This document shows, piece by piece, positions 1,892 to 50,523 of a stretch of DNA of 64,000 nucleotides. The position numbers and the translations under genes are program-made. The stretch is taken from positions 5,231 to 69,230 of the IMG/VR virus record IMGVR_UViG_3300040801_004519; one strand, 5' to 3'. The notes beneath the pieces were generated by a model, which had not been told where the DNA came from, searched no databases, and saw only the letters and a program-made list of their open reading frames with translations. Source of the stretch: a virus. Lineage: Duplodnaviria; Heunggongvirae; Uroviricota; Caudoviricetes. Within the stretch, counting starts at the first letter, position 1, and every line of letters begins with the position of its first letter.

Positions 1892-4800
1892 ATGCCTCTA
1901 TATACGCAACACTACCGACTTGGCATTAAGCTTTCGGGCGAAGCATATTCTGCTTCTCTTGATAGAGCAAGAATGCTCACGATTGACAGCCAGCTTGATT
2001 TCATTTCTGACATTGTTGGAGATGGGAAAGTCTTTGGTTGGGATGTTGAGCCTCAAACATTCGGCATGTCGGTAGGAGATGGGATTGGGATCATAGACAA
2101 ATTTGTCGTTCAAACCTTTGGGCCTATCTTTGTGCCACTAGACGAAGGTGAATCTTTCCTTTTTGCAAAAATACGTGAAGGACAGTTTGGTGGGTATAGC
2201 GATTTCGCTGGACCTGTATCCTTTAACTACGTCGATGAATCGTCTCCCGATGCTCCTTCTTCGGCAAGTGCCTCAGCGGTATCATTTGAATCAATATCCT
2301 TGTCCTGGACAGAATCGATCTCGGATGATGCTTTTGAGTATGAGATATGGAGAAGTATTGACAACACTGGCTCTGGTTGGAATAGTGTTACTGAGCCTTT
2401 GGTTACTGTCGATGGAACAGTATTCGTCGATACTAATTTAGATCAGCAGACAACTTACTATTACAGGATATACACCCTCGACCCTTCAGGCAACAGGTCT
2501 TCTACCTATGCCTCGACTAGCGCCTTGACACTTGATGATCTTCGTGTTCCCCTTGCACCAAGGGGGATGCAGGTGTTCACCTCATCGAGTCGTATCCAGG
2601 TTGTTTGGCAATCATCCCCCAGCAATTTTGTTAGTGGCTATAGGGTTTCTGCACAACCTTTGGACGTAAATGGTAATCCTTCGGGTGATTCACTTTCAGC
2701 AAATATAGTATCGTCTTCCTTTTACACTTTCAATGGCCTTGACAACGGTACACGATATAAAATTTCTGTGCAAGCCAAACAGGTTAATGGCGTGTTGTCG
2801 CCTGAAGTGTCACTGAACTCCACACCCTCTGAAAACGATGGTCCGCCTGATGCAGACTCACTTGCTGTTGAGGAGTTTTGGGACGGTACTAATTTGAGCC
2901 TAAACCTTGAGTGGGATCAAAACTCTGACTCTGCGTCAGGTCCGCCATTCCGGTGGCAAATCACTCTTGTTGAGGATGGAGAGAGAAACTCAAACCCAAT
3001 TCTTGTTTCTGGGCTTCGACAGAAAGTACTCATAAATAATGCTAGGTACGGAGATGAATCAAGGCCCATATCTGAAAAGTCCAATTACTTAGTTCGGATT
3101 CAGGCAGTTAATCAATCCAACACGAAAAGCTTTGGAACGATTAGTCAAATTAAAACGAGTAAGTGGTCAAATCCACTTCCGGTATCTAATGTTGCTTTAA
3201 ATCTTTTCAGGAATGAGAACTTAAAAGTCACTTGGTTGAATCCAGTTGATGATTTTGAGAGAGTGCTAATAAGCCTAACAAAGTTCGATCCAGCAGCAGA
3301 TTCTACATCAATAATCATTTCTGATTTGAGCGTAGGCAAGGCAGAATCATATACCAGTCCAATACTTATTGAAAGCGGAGTTGTCTATTCTGCCTCCGTG
3401 GTAACTGTGGATTCTGGGGGTAATAAAAGTGAAATACAGCAGACAGATTTTTCCACAGAATCTGGTATTCCGCTTCCGCTTCCACCAACGGCTGTGAGAG
3501 CAAGAAGCCGACTTGGTTATGTTTCTGTACAATGGGATGTAAGCTTATCACTTGGGATTCAAAAGTACAAAGTCTATAGGACTCCATTTGCTTTTCTGGG
3601 TGATCCTATTTCTGCTACTGAGATAGCAACCGTGGATTCGGATGTTTACCAGATTGATGACTACAGCGTTGATGTCGGAGAACGTTACACCTATATGGTT
3701 GTATCAATAGATTCATTCGGAAATGAATCAAGTGGTCCCTCACAAGGAGACTTCTCATTTGCCTCCGCTGATGTTACAGTTGACAATAGCTCGGGGATTG
3801 AGGAACCAAAAGACTTTGAAGGTAACTTTGACAGTGATTCCTTTAATTTAACTTGGTCTAATTCAAATGATGGATTTGACGGGTATCAGGTGTTCCGATC
3901 CGAGAACGGCGGCATATATCACAGGGTTGCTTCTATTGGAAGATCAGAAACCTCCTGGTCCGATACCAACTTTAACAAGATAAATGGCTCCACTTACAGC
4001 TACGTTCTGCGTAAGTATCGCAATGAAGCTGAGTTTGAGATTCGTGAGAAATCCGCACTTGGAAAAGGATCAGTATTCCTTGGAAAGTTAGATGTGGATA
4101 GTTCTGGTAACGTTGTATATTCTGAAGATGCCTTTGTTGACCTGTCCATGTTGAGGGGGCCGATACGGAGAGAAGCCAGAAAGCGTCTCGCAAAGCATCG
4201 TCATTTTAAGTTCTCCGAAGAAGATGATCGGAGAATTAGTCTCGATACGAATTGGAAAGTATCGGATTGGTCTACAAGCAGGGGTACGGTGTGGACTACA
4301 GAAGAAAACATATTCGACACAGGATTGTTCTCTGTTTTCATTGATGGCAATCCTACAAATATCTTGTATGATTTAGATAAAGTGAGGGGCGAGCTTACTT
4401 TTGAAGAAAGTATTGATGAGGACTCGCTTGTTGAAGTTGTGTTTTCTGATTTAGCAGAAACACAAGGTATTTTGCCGCCCCAAAAGGTGGGAGATGTTAG
4501 TGCATCTCGTTTTGATCGAGGGAAAATACCAAAGGAGGCAATTCCCAAAATAAGTCATGAAGGAAGAAAAAGAGACAGGCTTCTTCCAAGACAGAATTTC
4601 TACACTTCTGGTGATGGCTTTGTGTTTTATCCAGATGACAGGGCTAATAATTCTTCCACAAATAATGTTGATAATTTTGATTCGGAAATGTTTTACTCAC
4701 TGGCTCCAGGTAGTTCAGAGGGTTCGATACTAGCTGCAACTGGTCGATCTTTGATGCTTAGCAATAACGCAGGTGTAGATTGGACCAATGTTCTCACAAC

Positions 4801-7456
4801 TAACTCTTTGACAGACTTTTTTAAGGATGTCTATAAAATAGATGATAATAATTGGGTCGCAATATCTAGAAACAATGTGTTTTTCTCTGATGAAGAACTG
4901 CAAAGTTGGTCAAGCATCGGAGGGCAAGTATCGGGCATCGGATCATCGAAGATAGTTCGTAAGTTCTTGGCAGCCTCAGACGGGAACTTTTATGTAACAA
5001 CTGATTCTGGAGTTCATAGGCTTGACAACAATGATGCTACCAAAAGGTGGGCGAGATGTTCTCCTCCAAATGATAGTACAACAGACTCATACGGAATTTA
5101 TGAAGATGACTCATTGGGTGCTATTGTTGTAAGCACGGCAAGAGGGCTTTCATACACGACTGATGGCGGCGACACTTGGACACAGTGGTCTGCCTTTGTG
5201 CGTAGAGAATCGATTTATGAGTTTATGAAAATTGGGACAAGTGTTTATGCTATTTCTGGCAATAAGCTTTTTCGCAAGAAAACGGATGATTCTACTTTTA
5301 AAGTGATGCATGTTTTCGAGAGTCGAATTCGTAGCATGGCTCATTTTAAGTCAAAAATCTACATTGCATCCGAAACTGGCGTTCACAGTTCCCAATACAA
5401 CTTTGAAGATGAAGATGACAAGATCATTTTCAATTCTGTGATGCCAGAAGTGGCGACCCATGGGCAAAAGCTTGCTGCAAACTCTCTTGCAGTAATCTCT
5501 TCCAATCTTTTTATTGGGACTGAAAACAGATTGTGGGCAGCCTCTTCTCATACGAGGGCGTCGATCCAATACAGAAAATTTGGCTCCAATGCTCTCATGG
5601 TTTTTGTAGACGGAGAAGTAAGAAGGCTTGGATGGTATTTCTCTCTAAGCAATATTGTTTTTGATTCCCCTATATCTCCCTTGTCTGCTGTTTCCGTTTC
5701 TAATCAATTTGGAGACTGGTATTCTCAAGACAGGGGGTGGTTAACATCAGGCCCAGCCTCTCCAGTATCTGTTTTCATAAATAATGCAAAAGTTACGGAA
5801 GATCAACAGAGTGAAGCAACTTTCTCCGTTCCATTTAGTCTATCTTCAACAGCTTTATTGCGACAAAGAGTTTCTTCCGAAACTGTGTCGGATCAAGCTA
5901 CGGCTTTGTCTATTATTGATAAGATGGAAGAACAGCTTGATGCCGCCAGACAGGCCCCCACTCAAGACCTAAGCGGCAATCCTGATAACTCTATTTTCGG
6001 CGAAGAAGTTCGCAAATACGCGGTCTTACTTGAAGAACTCAAGAATGTGTTTTTTGACGCATCTATATTTACCGATCCAAATTTTAGATTTTCTTTGAAT
6101 ACCAATTCTAGTGCTGCAAGCCAGTACTTGGTTGATTCTGTAACAGTAGACTCAGCCGAAGGTCAGCTTTTCTTTCCAAGAGTTCGAGCAACTCAGTCTA
6201 GCAGAGAAAATACACTTAGCTCATCGGATAACTTTAATTCGTACTCTGTTGTTGAAATAGATGTTACTGGTACCTCAATTCAAGGTGAAGGAAAATACAC
6301 ACATGACGAGATAGAAGATTCCTTTTCGAAGAAACTGTCTTTCCTCGAAAGTCCCATTGCCCAAATACTTCGATCTAACACCATCAGGTCTGATATCTTC
6401 ATGAACAATACTTACGAAGATAGCAGGGAAAAGACTTCTAGTACATCTCCACCGCACAATCTCAATATTTACGGAGGATGCGAAAATACTTGGTATAGGA
6501 AGTTTGATTCTACCGTAGACTATTCTTTACGAGTCCGCAAAAATCCAGATAACCTGTCCCTTCTATTTCCTTCTTCGTGCATAATCGTTGAAGCGAGAAA
6601 CGAAGTATGGGTTAGCGGTCTTGGCGGAATTATTGCAGTTGACATTGATTCTCTAACTGTATCAAGTGTATTTAGAGTTGGTGACTCAAAAAACCTTCAT
6701 CCGGCGAATACCGTCAACTCAATGTATGTATTCGATGACAGGGTTTTTGCAACTCTTCCGTCTTCCCTCTTAGAGTTTGATATAAGCTCACTTGATTCTA
6801 TCAAGGATGATTCAGAAAACTCGCCAACAGGTTTAACTTCTGTTATAGTATACAACAACCAGCCTGTGGTTGCAGCACATAACGGAGTTTTTGTCCGCGA
6901 TGTGACAAAATCATGGTTCCGATCTCTAGAGACCGAGCAACCCTGTGATGTTTGGGATGCTGGAGGCTTGGCAGTGGCCAGAGAAAGGCATAACAAATTT
7001 TACACTTCACCAACTGGAGAATCTTGGACTGAGAAGGGTGATGGAGGTATTCGCAACACGCCTGTCACCTCACTTGTTCGACACAGGACAAACCTGATTG
7101 CAACACCAAATGGTCTTTATGATGATAGCCTGACTTTATTTGCCAATACCACTCAATTTTCCAAAGCAAATCTTCCTTCTGAAGGTGGTGCCAATGGCTC
7201 CCCGATCAACGATGTATTTTCAGATAAAGATGTTGCGGTAGTTGGAGTTTCGGATGGACGATACTATCTATATGGAGGCGGCACAGGAATAACGGAGTAT
7301 GTTGAGTATGATAACTCTGAAAACCTAGAGTTGATTCATAAAGTGCTTATTGTCAATGGCCTTCCCTGGCTTTTTGGCTCTGATCGTCTGCATATTCCAT
7401 CCAGAGGCACCACAATCAAGCTTGCAACAGGTGAGAGACTACAGTGGCTAACTTAA
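1892..7456 (+). CDS. Large virion/tail-associated protein with FN3 repeats and Asp-box (BNR) beta-propeller regions
   Basis: 1854 aa. Several FN3-like repeats (ISLSW...YEIWRS...YYYRIYT; IQVVW...YKISVQA; VSVQW...YTYMVVS). Asp-box-like motifs SNNAGVDW, TTDGGDTW, SPTGESW. Confidence 0.65.
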   Translation: MPLYTQHYRLGIKLSGEAYSASLDRARMLTIDSQLDFISDIVGDGKVFGWDVEPQTFGMSVGDGIGIIDKFVVQTFGPIFVPLDEGESFLFAKIREGQFGGYSDFAGPVSFNYVDESSPDAPSSASASAVSFESISLSWTESISDDAFEYEIWRSIDNTGSGWNSVTEPLVTVDGTVFVDTNLDQQTTYYYRIYTLDPSGNRSSTYASTSALTLDDLRVPLAPRGMQVFTSSSRIQVVWQSSPSNFVSGYRVSAQPLDVNGNPSGDSLSANIVSSSFYTFNGLDNGTRYKISVQAKQVNGVLSPEVSLNSTPSENDGPPDADSLAVEEFWDGTNLSLNLEWDQNSDSASGPPFRWQITLVEDGERNSNPILVSGLRQKVLINNARYGDESRPISEKSNYLVRIQAVNQSNTKSFGTISQIKTSKWSNPLPVSNVALNLFRNENLKVTWLNPVDDFERVLISLTKFDPAADSTSIIISDLSVGKAESYTSPILIESGVVYSASVVTVDSGGNKSEIQQTDFSTESGIPLPLPPTAVRARSRLGYVSVQWDVSLSLGIQKYKVYRTPFAFLGDPISATEIATVDSDVYQIDDYSVDVGERYTYMVVSIDSFGNESSGPSQGDFSFASADVTVDNSSGIEEPKDFEGNFDSDSFNLTWSNSNDGFDGYQVFRSENGGIYHRVASIGRSETSWSDTNFNKINGSTYSYVLRKYRNEAEFEIREKSALGKGSVFLGKLDVDSSGNVVYSEDAFVDLSMLRGPIRREARKRLAKHRHFKFSEEDDRRISLDTNWKVSDWSTSRGTVWTTEENIFDTGLFSVFIDGNPTNILYDLDKVRGELTFEESIDEDSLVEVVFSDLAETQGILPPQKVGDVSASRFDRGKIPKEAIPKISHEGRKRDRLLPRQNFYTSGDGFVFYPDDRANNSSTNNVDNFDSEMFYSLAPGSSEGSILAATGRSLMLSNNAGVDWTNVLTTNSLTDFFKDVYKIDDNNWVAISRNNVFFSDEELQSWSSIGGQVSGIGSSKIVRKFLAASDGNFYVTTDSGVHRLDNNDATKRWARCSPPNDSTTDSYGIYEDDSLGAIVVSTARGLSYTTDGGDTWTQWSAFVRRESIYEFMKIGTSVYAISGNKLFRKKTDDSTFKVMHVFESRIRSMAHFKSKIYIASETGVHSSQYNFEDEDDKIIFNSVMPEVATHGQKLAANSLAVISSNLFIGTENRLWAASSHTRASIQYRKFGSNALMVFVDGEVRRLGWYFSLSNIVFDSPISPLSAVSVSNQFGDWYSQDRGWLTSGPASPVSVFINNAKVTEDQQSEATFSVPFSLSSTALLRQRVSSETVSDQATALSIIDKMEEQLDAARQAPTQDLSGNPDNSIFGEEVRKYAVLLEELKNVFFDASIFTDPNFRFSLNTNSSAASQYLVDSVTVDSAEGQLFFPRVRATQSSRENTLSSSDNFNSYSVVEIDVTGTSIQGEGKYTHDEIEDSFSKKLSFLESPIAQILRSNTIRSDIFMNNTYEDSREKTSSTSPPHNLNIYGGCENTWYRKFDSTVDYSLRVRKNPDNLSLLFPSSCIIVEARNEVWVSGLGGIIAVDIDSLTVSSVFRVGDSKNLHPANTVNSMYVFDDRVFATLPSSLLEFDISSLDSIKDDSENSPTGLTSVIVYNNQPVVAAHNGVFVRDVTKSWFRSLETEQPCDVWDAGGLAVARERHNKFYTSPTGESWTEKGDGGIRNTPVTSLVRHRTNLIATPNGLYDDSLTLFANTTQFSKANLPSEGGANGSPINDVFSDKDVAVVGVSDGRYYLYGGGTGITEYVEYDNSENLELIHKVLIVNGLPWLFGSDRLHIPSRGTTIKLATGERLQWLT

Positions 7457-38598: not shown

Positions 38599-39272
38599 AT
38601 GAACAACAAAAACATTAGAAAGGAGCATTATCCGACCGCCAAGGCCTCTAGAGAGACTTGGTTTGTGTCGGATACTTAGCTCATTTTGGACACGCAAACA
38701 TAATCAAATATTCGAGTAGGCCATTTAGTTCTGTTGAAGAACATGATGAAACTCTGATTGAGAATTGGAATAAGCACGTTAAAGATAACGAAGACGTTTA
38801 CTTCTTGGGCGATTTTGCCTATCGAAATAAAAATGCCGCAGCCAATATCAGGAGAAGGCTAAATGGCAATATCTACTTTATCGAAGGAAATCATGATAAA
38901 TCTGCTTTTCAAATTCGCAATACCTTCGAGTGGTACAAACAGACACATGAGATAAAGGTTGAAGGGCATCGAATCTGGCTTAGCCACTACGCTCACAGAA
39001 CATGGAATAAATCACACCATGGAGCCATTCATTTATATGGACATAGCCACCATTCACTTCCCGATGATCCTCATGCACTAAGCATGGACGTTGGTGTCGA
39101 TGCGATTGCTTGCCGTGCCGCTAATGTTAAAAGCGGAACAAATCCTATTCCTGTGGGTAAAACAAAGCCTGAAGATTATCGACCAATTTCTCTTGATGAA
39201 GTTATAAACTTCATGTCGGATAAGAATTGGTTTCCAATCGATCATCATGGGCGAAAACCAAACATGAGTTGA
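38599..39272 (+). pseudogene. Calcineurin-like phosphoesterase interrupted by a 5-nt insertion containing a stop
   Basis: ATG 38599 reads MNNK...TWFVSDT then TAG; TAGCT separates SDT from HFGH in another frame. The downstream part has LGDFA, GNHD, HYAH, GHSH, DVGVD. Confidence 0.7.
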
Positions 39273-39278
39273 CAATAT

Positions 39279-40292
39279 ATGCGTATTCTGATATTTACTG
39301 ATGCGTGGGAACCACAAGTAAATGGTGTAGTTCGTACAATGACTACCACAACCCGCATCCTCCGGGACCGGGGACATGAGGTGAAGGTTGTTAGTCCGAA
39401 TGATTTTGCTTGCTGGCCACAAGCATTTACAAGTTGGGCCGATCCTGGAATCAAGTTCTGTATTGCGCCCCCACTTCTCAAGTCATCCTCTATCGTTAAA
39501 AGCTTTCGACCAGACACCATTCACGTCTGTACCGAAGGCCCTATCGGTTGGGCTGCCTTAGCATATTGTGTTTCTAAATCAATTCCGTTCACTACAACGT
39601 ATCATACAAAGTTTCCAGAGTATCTAAAAAAGAGATTTGGTGTCCCGACAAAAGCAGGATATGCGTATGAACGATCTTTTCACAATTTCGCTTCTCGAAC
39701 GATGTATGCTACTGATTCTCTTCGTGATGAGTTAGTGCAAAATGGGATCACACGACTGGCAAAATGGGAAAGGGGCGTAGACGCCAATCTGTTTCATCCT
39801 GATAGGCGAAAAGTTCACAATGGACTTCCTGTAGCACTGTATTTTGGCCGTGTCTCTAAGGAGAAGAATATCGAGGCTTTTCTAAATTCAGAATGGTCTG
39901 GTCATAAGATTGTCGTTGGGGATGGCCCACATCTTGATGCACTAAAGTCCAAATATCCTAATGTTGAATATACTGGGAAGCTTGTTGGGAAGGAACTAGC
40001 TGAAGTGGTTGCCTCGGCAGATGTATCAGTGTTTCCAAGTAAAACCGACACTTATGGACTGACCATGATCGAGTCCATGGCCTGTGGGACTCCAGTGGCT
40101 GCATTTAATGTCACGGGACCAAGGGATGTAATTCTGCATGGGAAAACGGGGTATCTTTCGAATGACGAATCACTTTCAGAAGCCATGCATAGCTCTTTGT
40201 CCGTGAGCAGAAAGGAATGCAGGAAATTTGCCGAGGGAAAAACATGGGAAGTCTGTACAGATCAATTCTACAGCAACCTTGTTTTTATTTAG
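39279..40292 (+). CDS. GT4 glycosyltransferase, Agt-like (glycolipid synthase)
   Basis: MRILIFTDAWEPQVNGVVRT, IHVCTEGPIG, YHTKFPEY, RGVD, GRVSKEKN, FPSKTDTYGL..ESMACGTPVAAF. Confidence 0.8.
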   Translation: MRILIFTDAWEPQVNGVVRTMTTTTRILRDRGHEVKVVSPNDFACWPQAFTSWADPGIKFCIAPPLLKSSSIVKSFRPDTIHVCTEGPIGWAALAYCVSKSIPFTTTYHTKFPEYLKKRFGVPTKAGYAYERSFHNFASRTMYATDSLRDELVQNGITRLAKWERGVDANLFHPDRRKVHNGLPVALYFGRVSKEKNIEAFLNSEWSGHKIVVGDGPHLDALKSKYPNVEYTGKLVGKELAEVVASADVSVFPSKTDTYGLTMIESMACGTPVAAFNVTGPRDVILHGKTGYLSNDESLSEAMHSSLSVSRKECRKFAEGKTWEVCTDQFYSNLVFI

Positions 40293-40300
40293 GACTCATT

Positions 40301-41131
40301 GTGCATTATCGAACCCTTTTCTTCTCAGATATACACCTAGGAAGCTCCGGTGCCCAAGCAGATGCATTTCTGTCATTTATAAAAGATAAGAGCTTCGATA
40401 AGATATACGTTGTCGGCGATTTTGTTGATTTCTGGTCACTTAAGCGAAAGGGGAAGCAATGGACTCAGGAGCACAATGATGTTCTTCAAAAGCTTCTCAA
40501 AAAACACCGAAAAGGTGCAGATTGCACCTGGATCGTAGGAAATCACGATGAATTCATGTCTCAATTTTCTGGTGAAAATTTTGGTGGTATTGATGTAATG
40601 CTTCAAGACGTTCATGTCGCTGCTGATGGTAAGAAGTATTTCATTATGCATGGACACGAACTCGATGCGATCATGCTTAACGCCAAATGGGCCATGCACC
40701 TTGGCTCAAGAGCTTATGATATTCTACTGTGGCTCAACCCCTATATGCGAAAAATATTCAATTTGTTCGGACATAAGCATTTTTCGTTGAGTGCCTATGT
40801 CAAGTATAAAGTAAAGGGCGCTGTAAACTTCATCAGTGATTTTGAAGACGGTATCGCGGGATATGCAAAGAGACATGATGTAGATGGTGTAATTTGTGGC
40901 CACGTTCATGTCCCATCAATGACAAAGCTTGACAGCGTTTTTTATCTGAATACTGGGGATTGGGTGGAATCACTGTCTTGTATAGTTGAACACGCAAGCG
41001 GAAAAATGGAATTGTTAAAAATGCATGAAGGAGTTATGGTGTCTTGTGCGGAAATTAATGCACATGAGGAAAAGGTGGTCTACAGTCGAAGAGAATTACT
41101 TACGCCAAACGTGGGGCAAACTACCAAGTAG
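40301..41131 (+). CDS. PlcP-like phospholipase C (LpxH-like metallophosphoesterase)
   Basis: YRTLFFSDIHLG, VGDFVDFW, HNDVLQKLLKK, GNHDEF, HGHELD, VKGAVNFI, DGVICGHVH, YLNTGDWVES. GTG start at 40301. Confidence 0.8.
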   Translation: MHYRTLFFSDIHLGSSGAQADAFLSFIKDKSFDKIYVVGDFVDFWSLKRKGKQWTQEHNDVLQKLLKKHRKGADCTWIVGNHDEFMSQFSGENFGGIDVMLQDVHVAADGKKYFIMHGHELDAIMLNAKWAMHLGSRAYDILLWLNPYMRKIFNLFGHKHFSLSAYVKYKVKGAVNFISDFEDGIAGYAKRHDVDGVICGHVHVPSMTKLDSVFYLNTGDWVESLSCIVEHASGKMELLKMHEGVMVSCAEINAHEEKVVYSRRELLTPNVGQTTK

Positions 41132-41792
41132 TCAAATCTGTCAGAACTTAAACAGAGACTATTGTTCGATAAACCACAAAGCTTCGAGGCTTAAATTGAA
41201 AGGCTCCGGTGTATCTAAGAGAATCTACAGGTATAATGAGTCGTTCTTCTCAGATTTCAATGCCCTATCTTGTTATTGGGCTGGGTTCATAGCAGCAGAT
41301 GGCTATATTAAACAAGTATCACCAGAACTCTCGATTAAGCTTGGCATAAAAGATATAGATCATTTATCTCATTTTTCTCAAGATATCGAGTATACTGGAT
41401 CAATCAAAACCGGCATCATTGCGAATGATCGAAAATACTGTCGCATTCGTTTATGTCATGCTGAGAAGATTGTTCAAGATTTAAACATTAATTTTGGGAT
41501 ATACCAAAAAAAAAGTTTTACGTTCTCGCCACCAGTCCTGGAGGGTGCAAATAGAATTGCTTTCGCCAAAGGACTTATAGATGGTGATGGGTGGCTCGCG
41601 AGTGGGAATCGCATTGGGTTCTGCGGCACAAAATTGGCTTGTGAATTTGTAAAGGAAACTTTTGAAAGCAAAGGGGAAGTTACTAAGCTTAGAAAAATAT
41701 ACCAAACCATAATCCCGAAAGCGAACGTTTTTGCGTTTAAAGATTATTTGGACGCCGTTGGCAGAGGGCTTAAAAGAAAATGGGCTGCATGA
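41058..41792 (+). mobile_element. Free-standing LAGLIDADG homing endonuclease with N-terminal HTH
   Basis: YWAGFIAADG and FAKGLIDGDG motifs; RWSTVEENYL HTH-like start; overlaps the plcP 3' end. Confidence 0.85.
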
Positions 41793-41896
41793 TCGATGAT
41801 ACACGCTACCTCAACTGCGGAGACTGGGTTGAGTCTCTTTCCGCTGTTGTTGAACATGCTGATGGGCGAATAGAGCTTGTTAAGTTCCAAAAATAA
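41789..41896 (+). pseudogene. Displaced duplicate of the PlcP C-terminus (35 aa)
   Basis: MIDDTRYLNCGDWVESLSAVVEHADGRIELVKFQK* aligns with KLDSVFYLNTGDWVESLSCIVEHASGKMELLK inside plcP. Confidence 0.85.
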
Positions 41897-41923
41897 AGTT
41901 TTCTCCTACAGTTGCCGATACTA

Positions 41924-41957
41924 GCAATATCATGACGCTATGATGTCACGATATTGC
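41924..41957. promoter_or_regulatory. Inverted repeat, candidate operator
   Basis: GCAATATC-a-TGAC-N8-GTCA-c-GATATTGC, 11 nt before the ATG of an RHH-like gene. Confidence 0.5.
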
Positions 41958-41968
41958 GAAGGAAAGCT

Positions 41969-43072
41969 ATGGAAGAGAAAACAGTACCAGTAACCGTTAG
42001 ACTGCCGGAATTTATACTTGAAGGCCTTAAGAAAGATGCTAGATTGAGGTCTTTTGCAGAAGGGACTGACATTAATCATGTGGATTTGATTAGAAACTCA
42101 CTCTCCAAGGAGTATGGGTCTTATTTGAATGATAATTTTGGTGATAAAGAATATTCGAAACTAAGTGGTGCCGAACAAAAGCTTGTGGACATGATGAACC
42201 GCCAGCGAAATTTCCTCACTGAATACCAGATAAAGGAATTTAGCAAATCAGAAGCTGGAAGCCATATCCAAAAACTTCTTGACGAAGAAGATTGGCAGGG
42301 TTTGCAGGGAGTATATGAGCGAACAGGCAACTGTTGGCTCCAGAAGGACAATCTTGCCTTTAGACTTTTAATGGAGGTTTGTGACGAAACTCGCGCTAGA
42401 TTGATTATTCGAGATACCTCAAGTATCGCTTCGATTTTAGGAAATCGCGGGGCTATACCTACTTCGATAACAGAGTTTGAAGAGATTTCGTCCCCTGTAT
42501 TTTCCGTAGGTTCTTTAAATGAAATTCGGTCCAGCGAACACGAGGGTCAAGCTTATAAGTGGTTCTCTCTCTTTAAGTCTCAGCTTAATGCTATGTCTAA
42601 AGAGATAACAAACAACATGATGACTCTTCTACTTTCTGCAACCTCAATAAACGGTCAGAGCGAGCAGCTTGAAGATATACAGAAGCTACAAGAGCATCAT
42701 ATCCAAAAAGCTGTGGTTGAAGTATCTCGACACGACCTTGTGCCTGATAAGATAGTTATGAGTGTTCCCGTGTACGTGTCACTCAGACTTCGATTTCCAA
42801 GCTCGATTTCTGCTCCACCCCTACCCCTTGCGATTGATTCCAAGAAGTTTGGGTTTTGGAACGGCGTTCCAATTCTGGCTGATGCCCGCATACAGGATTC
42901 CCTATGTGTCCTTGCGAGGCCTGACGATGTTGGAGTATTCTGGAAAGTTGGTAGGAATAGCTTTAAATTAAAAGATAACATCAACAAATCTTCTATTGAA
43001 GTCGCTGCAACTTCGAGACTTTCTCTCGTCGTGATAAATGACTATGGAATCGCTTCTATTGTATTTGATTGA
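41969..43072 (+). CDS. N-terminal ribbon-helix-helix-like domain fused to a degenerate major-capsid-like domain
   Basis: VPVTVRLPEFILEGLKKDA is RHH-like. The C-terminal FWNGVPIL...VLARPDDVG...VINDYGIA resembles the C-terminus of large-phage capsid proteins. Confidence 0.4.
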   Translation: MEEKTVPVTVRLPEFILEGLKKDARLRSFAEGTDINHVDLIRNSLSKEYGSYLNDNFGDKEYSKLSGAEQKLVDMMNRQRNFLTEYQIKEFSKSEAGSHIQKLLDEEDWQGLQGVYERTGNCWLQKDNLAFRLLMEVCDETRARLIIRDTSSIASILGNRGAIPTSITEFEEISSPVFSVGSLNEIRSSEHEGQAYKWFSLFKSQLNAMSKEITNNMMTLLLSATSINGQSEQLEDIQKLQEHHIQKAVVEVSRHDLVPDKIVMSVPVYVSLRLRFPSSISAPPLPLAIDSKKFGFWNGVPILADARIQDSLCVLARPDDVGVFWKVGRNSFKLKDNINKSSIEVAATSRLSLVVINDYGIASIVFD

Positions 43073-43094
43073 CAGTATTGACGATAATCTATTT

Positions 43095-43817
43095 ATGGCT
43101 GAAATATCTTTACCCCAGATGTTGGATCGAGTTTACTCTAAAATTCCTGACACTAAGGGTTGCATGGAGAATCTAGATACTTGTGGGGCGTGGTGCTGTC
43201 GAGAACAAACACCCCATGCCCTCAAAAGTGAGTTTGGGTCACTTTGGGAATCCGTTACATCCAAGGGACCAGAGTATGTTATTGCAACAGTTGTCAGAGC
43301 GGTTGGCAATTATCTTTCATCTTCTCTCAATAAAGGTTGCGTATTCTGGGATCAAAATACGAAGATGTGTCAGGAGCATGAGAGGAGGCCTTTTGCCTGT
43401 AGAACCTACGGCATTATGCCTGAAGAAGAATGGAAGCCGCGTTACGAGAAGCTTAAAGTTCTCAACAACGATCTGCGCCCCCAGTGTGGTTTGGTTAGTA
43501 CAGAAAGTGGCGAAGAATTTTCGAAAGAAGAGAGTGATAGGCTGTGGCAAGAATTACTTAAGTATGAGCCAATTGTTGGCGTCCAGCACGACGGCGTGCG
43601 TGAGGGACCGGATGGGAACTATAAATCTCTACACGATCATATTGTTGTGGAATTTTTCCCCAAAGAAGTGGTGCGGCAGTTATCCCATGCTCGGATATCT
43701 TCCTCAGATGAAGCGAAGAAATCACTTCTACAAACTATCGAGTCAATGCTCAGGAAAAATTTAGGAATTGAAAATGGAAATATCGAACGCAGCACGAACG
43801 ACGAACGCACTGATTAA
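43095..43817 (+). CDS. YkgJ-family Cys-cluster (Fe-S/Zn) protein
   Basis: CMENLDTCGAWCC, CVFWD...CQEHERRPFACRTYG. ATG at 43095 preferred. Confidence 0.75.
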   Translation: MAEISLPQMLDRVYSKIPDTKGCMENLDTCGAWCCREQTPHALKSEFGSLWESVTSKGPEYVIATVVRAVGNYLSSSLNKGCVFWDQNTKMCQEHERRPFACRTYGIMPEEEWKPRYEKLKVLNNDLRPQCGLVSTESGEEFSKEESDRLWQELLKYEPIVGVQHDGVREGPDGNYKSLHDHIVVEFFPKEVVRQLSHARISSSDEAKKSLLQTIESMLRKNLGIENGNIERSTNDERTD

Positions 43818-47979: not shown

Positions 47980-48696
47980 ATGAACGTTGATCCCAGTAGA
48001 GTAATGGCCGTAGTTCCGGCAAGGGCAGGCTCAAAAGGATTGCCAGGAAAAAATCTGAAGCCGATACTTGGTCGCCCTCTGTTCGAGTGGTCCATCTTAG
48101 CTGCCATTAGATGTGAGCTAATCGGGAAAGTGGTCATCTCAACAAACGACGATCAAATAGTATCTCACATTGCTGCAAATTATCCAGATTCCAATAAGGT
48201 GAATCTGGTTGTTCGTCCCGATTCGCTCTGTACCGATGTTTCTTCAACGGAAGACGCCTTGATCCATGCACTTGATCATTTTGATCCAGATGGCGATTGT
48301 ATAGATTGGGTGGTCACCCTTCAACCTACGAGTCCAATTAGAACAAACAACTTAATAGAAAGTTGCTTTTCGAAGCTTCTTTCTCATGATGCGGATAGCC
48401 TCATGACGATATCACGTCATACCCCTTTCTTTTACCACATTAACAGCGATAGCTTGCTTGAGCCTATTCAGCATGATCCATGCGATAGGCCCATGAAGCA
48501 AGACATAGAAGATTGGATGTTTCACGATAACGGCAATGTTTACATCAGTTCACCCGAAGTTTTGAAGCAGACAAATTGTAGAATTGGTAAATGTTGTGTT
48601 GGATACGAAACGGATTTAATGCAATCACTTCAAATTGACACAATTGAAGAATTTGACAACATATCCCATATTGCTTCCAAGTACAAAATTTTATAA
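47980..48696 (+). CDS. neuA: CMP-nonulosonic acid synthetase (acylneuraminate cytidylyltransferase)
   Basis: VPARAGSKGLPGKNL, VISTND, RPDSLCTD, LQPTSPIR, NGNVY, QIDTIEEF. Confidence 0.9.
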   Translation: MNVDPSRVMAVVPARAGSKGLPGKNLKPILGRPLFEWSILAAIRCELIGKVVISTNDDQIVSHIAANYPDSNKVNLVVRPDSLCTDVSSTEDALIHALDHFDPDGDCIDWVVTLQPTSPIRTNNLIESCFSKLLSHDADSLMTISRHTPFFYHINSDSLLEPIQHDPCDRPMKQDIEDWMFHDNGNVYISSPEVLKQTNCRIGKCCVGYETDLMQSLQIDTIEEFDNISHIASKYKIL

Positions 48697-48700
48697 TACT

Positions 48701-48781
48701 ATGAAAAAATTCATAACACAAGATAAAGAGAAGGTTGTAGCAGAGATTGGTGCAAATCACAAAATTTCTAGCCGAAGATAA
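48701..48781 (+). pseudogene. Displaced duplicate of the NeuB N-terminus
   Basis: MKKFITQDKEKVVAEIGANH-KISSRR* matches MKKYENYKKAKVVAEISANH of the downstream neuB. Confidence 0.8.
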
Positions 48782-48815
48782 AGGATTTTGTTGACGAATA
48801 TGGCACCACTACTCC

Positions 48816-49652
48816 ATGCTCGTCAACAAAAAATATACTATTGGTAGAAATGGTCAGATCGCATCCAGGGAGAGGGTTACTGTTTCCTGTGACTCAGATA
48901 ACTGTAATTCGGAATGGTGTACGCAATATAGTAACTACAAGAGACGCAAGTGCTCTAAGGATTATTGCCAGTCTTGTAAGAACAGAATAGGCATATGTGG
49001 GATGAAAGGCAAGTCTCATTCAGCAGAAACAAAGGAAAAGGCATCGATTCGAAGCTCGGGTAAAAGAAACCCCTTCTATGGAAAAAAACATACACAAGAT
49101 GTAAAGAGTCGAATATCAAAACACCCTAACGTAAAGTCTATGAAGGGAAAGAAACGTCCTGAACACAGTAAGAAAATGAAAGAGGTTATTACGTCTTACT
49201 GGAAGGGACTTACGGAAGAAGAAAGAGCTTCGAGGCTTGCAAAACATGATTTTTCTGCTTTACAAAAAGCTTGCCTCTGCAATGGTGGAAGGTATTCAAA
49301 GCTCCATAAGTCAGTAATTTTGATGATGAACGAGGTTGGAATCGATAGGTTTGAATCTGAAAAGCAGATCGGTCGATATGTATATGACGAGGTACGAGAG
49401 GATAAGAAAGTCATCATTGAGGTCAATGGTGACTTTTGGCACGCGAACCCCAATATTTACGCTGAAGAAGATGTTGTTAGGTTGCCAAAGGGTGACAAGA
49501 TTGCGAGAGAGATTTGGAACAGCGATAAATTAAGGGTTTCTTATGCTCAGGAGCTTGGATACAAAGTGTTCATAATTTGGGAATCGGATGTAAAGTCAGG
49601 AAAAGTTTTTGACAAATTGAAAGGCATAAATGAAAAAATACGAAAATTATAA
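48816..49652 (+). mobile_element. Free-standing homing endonuclease: Cys-rich, NUMOD3-like repeats, Vsr-like (EDxHD-type) nuclease
   Basis: GKSHSAETKEK, NPFYGKKHT, YVYDE...IIEVNGDFWHAN, GYKVFIIWESD. Confidence 0.75.
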
Positions 49653-50523
49653 AAAGGCAAAAGTGGTTGCAGAAATATCTGCAAACCACATGGGTTCTAT
49701 TGATACAGCAATAGAAATGATTCGCGTTGCTGCTGAATGCGGAGCAGATGTTGTTAAGTTCCAGAAGAGAAACCCAAAGGAATCGGTAAGCAGCGATTTA
49801 TATACAAAACCACATCCTGTTCCTGGTAATTCATTTGGGAAGACATATGGTGAGCATCGAGAGTTTCTTGAGCTTTCTATTGGCGATCACGAACGACTCA
49901 TGAGAGAATGTGAGTCGTCGGGAGTTGACTACAGCACAAGCGTTTGGGATGTGACAAGTGCAAGAGACATTGTTAAGCTAAATCCGAAATATATTAAGGT
50001 GCCCTCGGCCTGCAATACGAACGATAAATTGCTCCGAAGCATTGTAGATTCCTTTGACGGTGAGGTTCACGTTTCTTTGGGTATGACAACATTTGACGAA
50101 ATTGATAAGATCGAAGTTGTCCTGTCGGACGTTTTATCTGAAAATTTAGTTTATTACCATTGTACTAGTGGATACCCAGTGCCAAATAACAAGCTTTATC
50201 TCAATGAAATATCTGAACTTCGCTATCGTTTTCCAGCACATCCCATTGGGTTTTCTGGGCATCATGTTGGTACTGCTCCAGACGTTGCCGCGTACGTGCT
50301 TGGTGCTGGATGGATAGAGCGACATTTCACCCTTGACCGCACACTCAAAGGTACTGATCACGCTGCCAGTCTTGATCCATCTGGACTTCGTACGCTGTGT
50401 AAAGACTTGAACGACGTGCATGAGGCAATGCGATACAAGCCTTCTGTTATGGACGAGATCGAAGTTCAGCAAAGGATGAAGCTAAAGTACTTTGAATTTC
50501 GTGAATTCCTCCAGAATAGCTAG
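49630..50523 (+). CDS. neuB: NeuB-family nonulosonic acid synthase (no C-terminal AFL/SAF domain)
   Basis: VAEISANHMG, VKFQKR, KVPS, SLGM, HCTSGYP, GFSGH, IERHFTLD, GTDH. Confidence 0.9.
   Translation: MKKYENYKKAKVVAEISANHMGSIDTAIEMIRVAAECGADVVKFQKRNPKESVSSDLYTKPHPVPGNSFGKTYGEHREFLELSIGDHERLMRECESSGVDYSTSVWDVTSARDIVKLNPKYIKVPSACNTNDKLLRSIVDSFDGEVHVSLGMTTFDEIDKIEVVLSDVLSENLVYYHCTSGYPVPNNKLYLNEISELRYRFPAHPIGFSGHHVGTAPDVAAYVLGAGWIERHFTLDRTLKGTDHAASLDPSGLRTLCKDLNDVHEAMRYKPSVMDEIEVQQRMKLKYFEFREFLQNS

Follow-up and report, generated by a model that had tools for sequence, protein, structure and literature searches.

A LAGLIDADG endonuclease gene between two copies of a plcP gene end in a phage genome: a probable case of homing by gene-end replacement

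In the stretch of viral DNA analysed here (64,000 nucleotides in full, hereafter referred to as the window), a plcP-like metallophosphoesterase gene is followed directly by an endonuclease gene, and the end of the plcP-like gene is present on both sides of that endonuclease gene. This arrangement raises the question of which of the two ends is native to the gene, where the other end came from, and whether the endonuclease gene arrived together with it. The IMG/VR virus record that contains the window comprises 133 kb, for which CheckV estimates a completeness of 27%; the source is therefore probably a very large phage. The features of the locus, together with those of a sister element found in another phage (L011), are collected in Table 1.

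Table 1. Features of the plcP locus in the window and of the sister element L011 (positions in the last three rows are those of L011)
Feature	Position	Strand	Basis or remark
GT4 glycosyltransferase gene (Agt-like), directly 5' of plcP	39279..40292	+	Pfam Glyco_transf_4, Glycos_transf_1
plcP-like metallophosphoesterase, resident gene body	40301..40927	+	Pfam Metallophos, 7e-14
Replacement ('new') plcP 3' end, presumably foreign	40928..41023	+	Codon table; comparison with L010
plcP read-through tail, 35 extra codons and stop	41024..41131	+	ORF list
Free-standing putative homing endonuclease gene, Myb/HTH-like domain and two LAGLIDADG motifs	41058..41792	+	phrog_4645; 2DCH
Displaced ('old') plcP 3' end, presumably native, 34 codons and TAA	41792..41896	+	Codon comparison, tblastn
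L011 plcP-like gene	3233-4029		Only 39% identical to the window plcP
L011 endonuclease, P0122	4001-4774		
L011 ORF repeating the plcP end from the GHIH motif onward	4771-4923		Directly at the endonuclease stop

The last ~32 codons of plcP occur twice, and the two copies are separated by the endonuclease ORF, which is open from 41025 to its stop at 41792 in another frame. Both copies stand in one reading frame at an offset of 864 bp (288 codons), and a tblastn search of the record with plcP retrieves the second copy at E=3.5e-9, bearing out the duplication on either side of the endonuclease gene that was described in an earlier note on this DNA. When 40943-41020 and 41807-41884 are compared codon by codon, 19 identical residues are found among 26 codons; with tryptophan excluded, the codons differ at 16 of the 18 shared degenerate residues, the same codon being used only for one valine (GTT) and one glutamate (GAA), which reproduces exactly the count given in the note. 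Addition of the aspartate at 40931/41795 raises this to 17 of 19, and the nucleotide identity between the two copies is only ~53%. The note had placed the element at 40919-41896, of which the end stands and the start does not, since 40919 lies three codons ahead of the onset of similarity at 40928/40931.

The gene caller sets the plcP start at GTG 40301, within an ORF that is open from 40217 and runs to 41131. The upstream copy of the gene end retains the family-conserved GDWVES...VEH motifs and carries no stop at the canonical position, the frame continuing into a tail that overlaps the start of the endonuclease gene in another frame. The stop codon of the endonuclease (41790-41792) marks the start of the downstream copy, which keeps the plcP frame and ends with TAA at 41894-41896. 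Within 41780-41896, an ATG at 41780 overlaps the endonuclease stop, and the old end forms an intact 38-codon ORF. Gene annotation would list this ORF as hypothetical, and a small orphan peptide may be made from it. In the stretch from the old plcP end to the following gene (41897-41968), an interrupted palindrome is visible at ~41925-41955.

The product of the host gene resembles LpxH, and its scores of 48 and 43 bits stay under the LpxH equivalog cut-offs (134 and 190 bits, respectively). PlcP is an LpxH-like phospholipase C involved in lipid remodelling under phosphorus starvation, in which Agt and PlcP constitute a lipid-remodelling pair (PMC4796936). Because the LpxH scores are far below the cut-offs and a GT4 gene lies directly upstream, the window gene and its neighbour would fit the Agt-PlcP pair, on criteria that are circumstantial. 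The GT4 gene is context and lies outside the mobile element. The same GT4 gene (58% amino acid identity) is located upstream of plcP in L010, a locus without the endonuclease, whose plcP body shares 69% amino acid identity with that of the window. Scanning for promoters and terminators yielded nothing above the shuffled expectation, and a BLASTN search of 38600-43100 against GenBank phages returned no match.

The endonuclease ORF is open from ATG 41025 and encodes a protein of 244-255 amino acids, the start of which is likely ATG 41058 or 41064 according to an alignment with P0122. At the N-terminus, a Myb/HTH-like domain (~41070-41207) precedes two LAGLIDADG motifs, YWAGFIAADGY (41274-41306) and GLIDGDGW (41571-41594), and the acidic residues D81, D175 and D177 are invariant in a family alignment of 12 sequences (A1). 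The protein matches the phrog_4645 endonuclease at 4e-23, and the A1 profile retrieves PDB entry 2DCH ('putative homing endonuclease') at 3.4e-17, the match spanning both motifs. Matches to Pfam LAGLIDADG_3 were obtained for all 12 aligned members, the best at 3.7e-10, while the window protein on its own lies below the cut-off of this family (15.9 vs 22.5 bits). Judged by these features, the window protein is an intact two-motif (monomeric type) LAGLIDADG enzyme and presumably a homing endonuclease. A group I intron or an intein was considered for this locus and rejected, given that a permissive Rfam scan of 40000-42600 detected no intron family, that the endonuclease occupies a frame different from that of plcP, and that the gene end is duplicated rather than split; the intron-less arrangement proposed in the note was confirmed on the first two of these grounds. 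Among the Pfam families matched by the 12 aligned sequences, neither a Hint nor a zinc-finger family occurs.

The endonuclease family is large, with 8684 cluster representatives at E<=0.001, among which the closest to the window protein is P0122 of locus L011 (51-52% identity), the rest reaching at most 46%. An exhaustive protein search returned no third plcP-associated member of this lineage. L011 displays the same layout in the plcP of another phage, namely a new end, a read-through tail, the endonuclease and an old end, and its read-through tail has the same relative frame as in the window. At L011:3430-3460, the plcP frame changes in an A-rich run near 3442-3451, with 3233-3442 in one frame and 3442-4029 in another. 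The frameshift may represent an assembly error or a real decay of the host gene after invasion, and preservation of the host gene is therefore not assured. Selection to keep plcP, which the note had read from the window, was overstated in view of this frameshift and may at best be presumed.

Partial duplications are also found across the wider endonuclease family. The translated flanks on either side of the endonuclease gene were compared (E<1e-5), and positions shifted by 1.7 kb served as controls; flanking partial duplications were present at 11 of 126 loci and, among the controls, at 1 of 210 (Fisher P=1.3e-4), and after collapse to 7 distinct contexts the value was P=0.0045. A gene end of 132 codons is duplicated in L023 (1982-4219) at 64% amino acid identity, with the old copy 5 nt past the endonuclease stop, and a gene end of 26 codons in L045 (2055-3700). 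A gene-start version, in which the first ~20 codons of a DnaE-like gene are duplicated upstream, occurs in L024, L029, L030 and L109; the segments L024:2550-3800 and L089:2681-3700 are among the flanking duplications of DnaE-like and primase-like gene starts, and L088 and L090 carry whole paralogues of ~200 amino acids on both sides. The Myb+LAGLIDADG family as a whole appears to use gene-end replacement. Divisibility of the cassette length by three was discarded as a meaningful property, since it holds in the window, L011 and L023 and fails in L045.

A second cassette of the same logic, located at a gene start, was noticed elsewhere in the window (48635-50523, neuB). There, an orphan neuB start at 48635-48781 (...KEKVVAEIGANH) comes after neuA, followed by a 278-aa endonuclease-like ORF at 48816-49652 and by a full-length neuB at 49630-50523 (...KAKVVAEISANH) that overlaps the 3' end of the endonuclease-like ORF.

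The reading preferred for the plcP locus, which is considered highly probable, is that a cassette composed of a foreign plcP 3' end with its read-through tail and the endonuclease gene was copied into the plcP-like gene, with displacement of the resident end. During co-infection, the endonuclease would cut a cassette-free plcP in the conserved GHxH...GDWVES coding block, and the break would be repaired from the cassette-bearing genome, with the plcP body as homology arm on the left and, on the right, the displaced old end together with the DNA further downstream. In the recipient, plcP would thereby become a full-length chimera followed by the endonuclease gene, and the recipient's original end would remain behind it as a stub. 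Re-cutting of the occupied allele would be prevented, as the site is split by the insertion and the new end differs at most of the third positions. The first event in a new host gene would require one non-homologous or short-homology join on the right side, which would account for the position of the old fragments, whose first codons lie at the presumed cut or slightly downstream of it. The old fragment starts at different plcP codons in the two elements (GH|IH in L011, ~10 codons further on in the window), which allows only a tentative placement of the target site: the window could be missing ~30 nt, or each enzyme could have a cleavage site of its own.

A single illegitimate or one-sided repair, after which the endonuclease no longer homes and which left the layout as a by-product without immunity function, is regarded as rather unlikely. 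Such a scar would agree with the small number of known plcP-associated members (two), with insertion points ~10 codons apart and with the frameshifted plcP of L011, and the present activity of the endonuclease is putative. It accounts poorly, however, for an endonuclease ORF that is intact and has its catalytic acidic residues, for old ends that are undecayed in both elements, for the recurrence of the layout across the wider family, and for the association of one lineage with plcP in two phage contexts that lack synteny, despite a protein divergence of 49%. The occurrence of one lineage in two non-syntenic plcP contexts implies repeated moves together with the gene end.

The polarity of the event can be read most directly from L011. 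A search with the L011 plcP yielded endonuclease-free relatives at 72-81% identity. One of these loci, L175, is fully syntenic with L011, with the R2K gene upstream and two Trypsin-family (Trypsin_2) genes downstream; another, L176, likewise without the endonuclease, is partly syntenic, having only the distal Trypsin gene and some flanking DNA in common with L011 and lacking both the upstream R2K gene and the plcP-adjacent Trypsin_2 gene. The L011 gene body shares 82% and 84% nucleotide identity with L175 and L176, respectively. A similar level is maintained by the old, downstream end (32/40 and 31/40 amino acids; 81% and 77% of nucleotides), as opposed to the new, upstream end (20/40 amino acids in both comparisons; 58% and 52% of nucleotides), and identity to the empty alleles breaks at the first His codon of GHIH. 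The comparison of endonuclease-free alleles with the two copies, suggested in the note as a check on its proposal, thus clearly favours the downstream copy in L011, where the native end was displaced downstream by the endonuclease and the replacement end. L011 and L175 constitute a clean natural pair of occupied and empty alleles for a new LAGLIDADG specificity. Among the L011 plcP relatives P0299-P0303, closely related alleles without the endonuclease are sharply different over the 9 residues that follow GHIH (SPTIREVNG, CSTIKKYDN and CPCIKRINE), and the first half of the L011 new end resembles the P0301 type; this variation points to diversification of the presumed target site or to a mosaic origin of the alleles.

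In the window itself, the same comparison leans towards the downstream copy and is weaker than in L011. The only endonuclease-free relative is L010 (68% amino acid identity), which matches the old end at 23/35 amino acids and 63% of nucleotides and the new end at 18/35 amino acids and 54% of nucleotides, so that polarity in the window depends on 5 residues and 9 points of nucleotide identity over 35 codons in a single 68%-identical relative. BLASTN with the L010 allele gives a separate HSP of 68 nt at 76% identity to 41819-41886, and the old end has its stop at the same position as L010/P0002. No empty allele of the window phage was found, the nearest being the 68%-identical one; the plcP relatives in further IMG/VR loci are only 33-37% identical and none is accompanied by an endonuclease, and a scan with the downstream 367-aa protein retrieved no relative and hence no phage syntenic with the window. 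A degenerate DNA pattern for the old end produced one match, in an unrelated viral plcP without a homing endonuclease gene (L174).

The reverse polarity, in which the upstream end would be native and the endonuclease would have landed behind plcP with a donor plcP 3' fragment, now the downstream copy, is considered improbable. The dependence of the window signal on one relative leaves some room for it, as do the comparisons with 119 family members, to which both window ends score alike (means of 16.6 vs 17.4 identities). The empty alleles of L011 nevertheless agree decisively with its downstream copy, the downstream copy of the window is likewise the one nearer to L010, and in the window it is the upstream copy that lacks the canonical stop and reads into the endonuclease, whereas the downstream copy stops as P0002 does. 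The mechanism and the polarity proposed in the earlier note were probably right.

The high proportion of codon differences between the two copies had led to the description of the upstream end as synonymously recoded. In the gene body, 59% of the shared degenerate residues already differ in codon between the window plcP and its closest endonuclease-free homologue (L010/P0002, 69% amino acid identity), and the Nei-Gojobori pS exceeds 0.75 in every plcP comparison made, that is, synonymous sites are saturated. The 17 of 19 codon differences in the window compare with 11.8 expected at full saturation from genome codon usage (P=0.007), in a post hoc test on a case chosen because it looked extreme, and the sister element L011 shows no excess (11/18 codon differences, P=0.25); the excess over saturation in the window is weak. 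GC3 is 0.38-0.42 throughout, and neither GC3 nor codon bias marks any part as foreign. A designed recoding was rejected on account of the saturated synonymous sites, the codon differences in the gene body and the absence of an excess in L011. Of the earlier description, the codon differences and the foreign end are retained and the purposeful recoding is not: as far as sequence comparison can tell, the 'recoding' is the ordinary saturated divergence of a foreign plcP allele, such as separates orthologues at ~70% protein identity. Cleavage resistance of the new end would follow from these differences only by presumption.

Nonsynonymous divergence was limited, with pN at 0.20-0.31 in all plcP comparisons of the window and 0.41 between the two L011 ends; the value of the old end against L010 (0.23) is close to that of the gene body against L010 (0.20). 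Saturated pS combined with low pN therefore indicates that the copies diverged inside working genes of separate lineages and not as a neutrally drifting repeat formed in situ, and that purifying selection acted on both copies before the insertion event. An in-situ tandem duplication of the plcP end, with later entry of the endonuclease between the repeats and no foreign end involved, is accordingly very improbable. Direct repeats around insertions can arise from replication slippage or target duplication, but a stranded fragment would be expected to evolve neutrally, the family motifs are preserved in both copies, the divergence of the old end from L010 does not exceed that of the body, and L011 is a sharp mosaic relative to its empty alleles. 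A chimera of two plcP strain variants, conceivable in a metagenome assembly with an estimated completeness of 27%, can practically be dismissed, as a 770-bp endonuclease gene separates the copies, their ~53% nucleotide identity is too low for collapse by an assembler, and the same layout was obtained in an independent assembly from another sample.

A more far-reaching reading likens the cassette to the engineered 'home-and-rescue' or recoded-rescue gene drives, in which a nuclease cassette carries a cleavage-immune, re-spelled 3' part of the target gene and the gene is kept working. These drives are synthetic CRISPR constructs with deliberate recoding, in contrast to the window, where the re-spelling is the natural divergence of a donor allele. 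It is doubtful that the carried gene end is a co-evolving immunity module and that the Myb+LAGLIDADG family represents widespread phage 'home-and-rescue' elements, and there is similarly little reason to expect that the end was selected for maximal silent-site difference from the resident end, a selection that would explain the 17/19 differences against 11.8 expected in the window. If this home-and-rescue reading were true, maximal silent difference would guard against self-cleavage as well as against repeat-mediated loss of the cassette, and the variable residues after GHIH (SPTIREV, CSTIKKY and CPCIKRI) would be the footprint of an arms race comparable to that at the WHO sites in FBA1 (see below).

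Under the preferred reading of a copied foreign gene end, such cassettes would have several consequences for the study of phage genomes. They would yield chimeric genes and short orphan ORFs, confusing phage gene calling and single-gene phylogenies, and would carry parts of auxiliary metabolic genes (plcP, for example) from phage to phage. A literature search, which covered few subscription journals, found no published phage case of homing by gene-end replacement. Fungal mitochondria and yeast already provide examples of the principle, of which L011 and the window would be phage instances.

The oldest counterparts are the mORF 'gene hybrids' of fungal mitochondria, reported for atp6, atp9, cox2 and nad3 in Glomus sp. 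(PMC3630166) and, as cited there, for atp6 in Allomyces macrogynus. In these hybrids, a LAGLIDADG (or GIY-YIG) ORF lies near the 3' end of a gene, with a foreign C-terminus before it and the native C-terminus after it; the native copy agrees with that of close relatives, the inserted one having diverged (63.5% of nucleotides in Glomus atp6), and some inserted ends lack a stop and read into the element (PMC3630166). They differ from the present element in that their targets are respiratory genes, whereas here a phage genome and an auxiliary lipid-remodelling gene are concerned, and in that several mORFs are in phase with the host gene, whereas the window endonuclease has an N-terminal Myb/HTH-like domain and uses another frame.

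A second counterpart is provided by the WHO elements of Torulaspora and Lachancea yeasts (PMC7282813; bioRxiv 10.64898/2026.08.13.744650). Their homing unit likewise combines an endonuclease gene with an upstream, resistance-conferring 3' part of the host gene (FBA1), and the host gene becomes a 5'/3' chimera with no need for splicing. WHO proteins are intein-derived (HO/VDE-like) and have a zinc finger, whereas neither a Hint domain nor a zinc finger was found in the window enzyme, which on domain content would be a mechanistic analogue of WHO and not a family-level homologue. WHO genes also form clusters of up to 9 genes, as compared with the single copy in the window, and their cleavage and allele specificity have been demonstrated experimentally, while the window element is known from its sequence.

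Among phages, the nearest systems are the free-standing homing endonucleases SegF, SegB and MobE of T4-like phages, which are described as 'intronless homing' (PMC2988022, PMC2330249, PMC2790892). They resemble the window element in being phage-borne free-standing genes without an intron or intein, and its proposed mode of spread in relying on double-strand-break repair with co-conversion of the flanks. The enzymes are of the GIY-YIG and HNH types, unlike the LAGLIDADG enzyme of the window, and the reports consulted place them between genes, with no stranded duplicate of the target-gene end noticed in them, whereas both versions of the flank are kept here. Gene-end-replacement homing, a mechanism known since the 1990s from fungal mitochondria and since 2020 from yeast nuclei (WHO), would also operate in bacteriophages.
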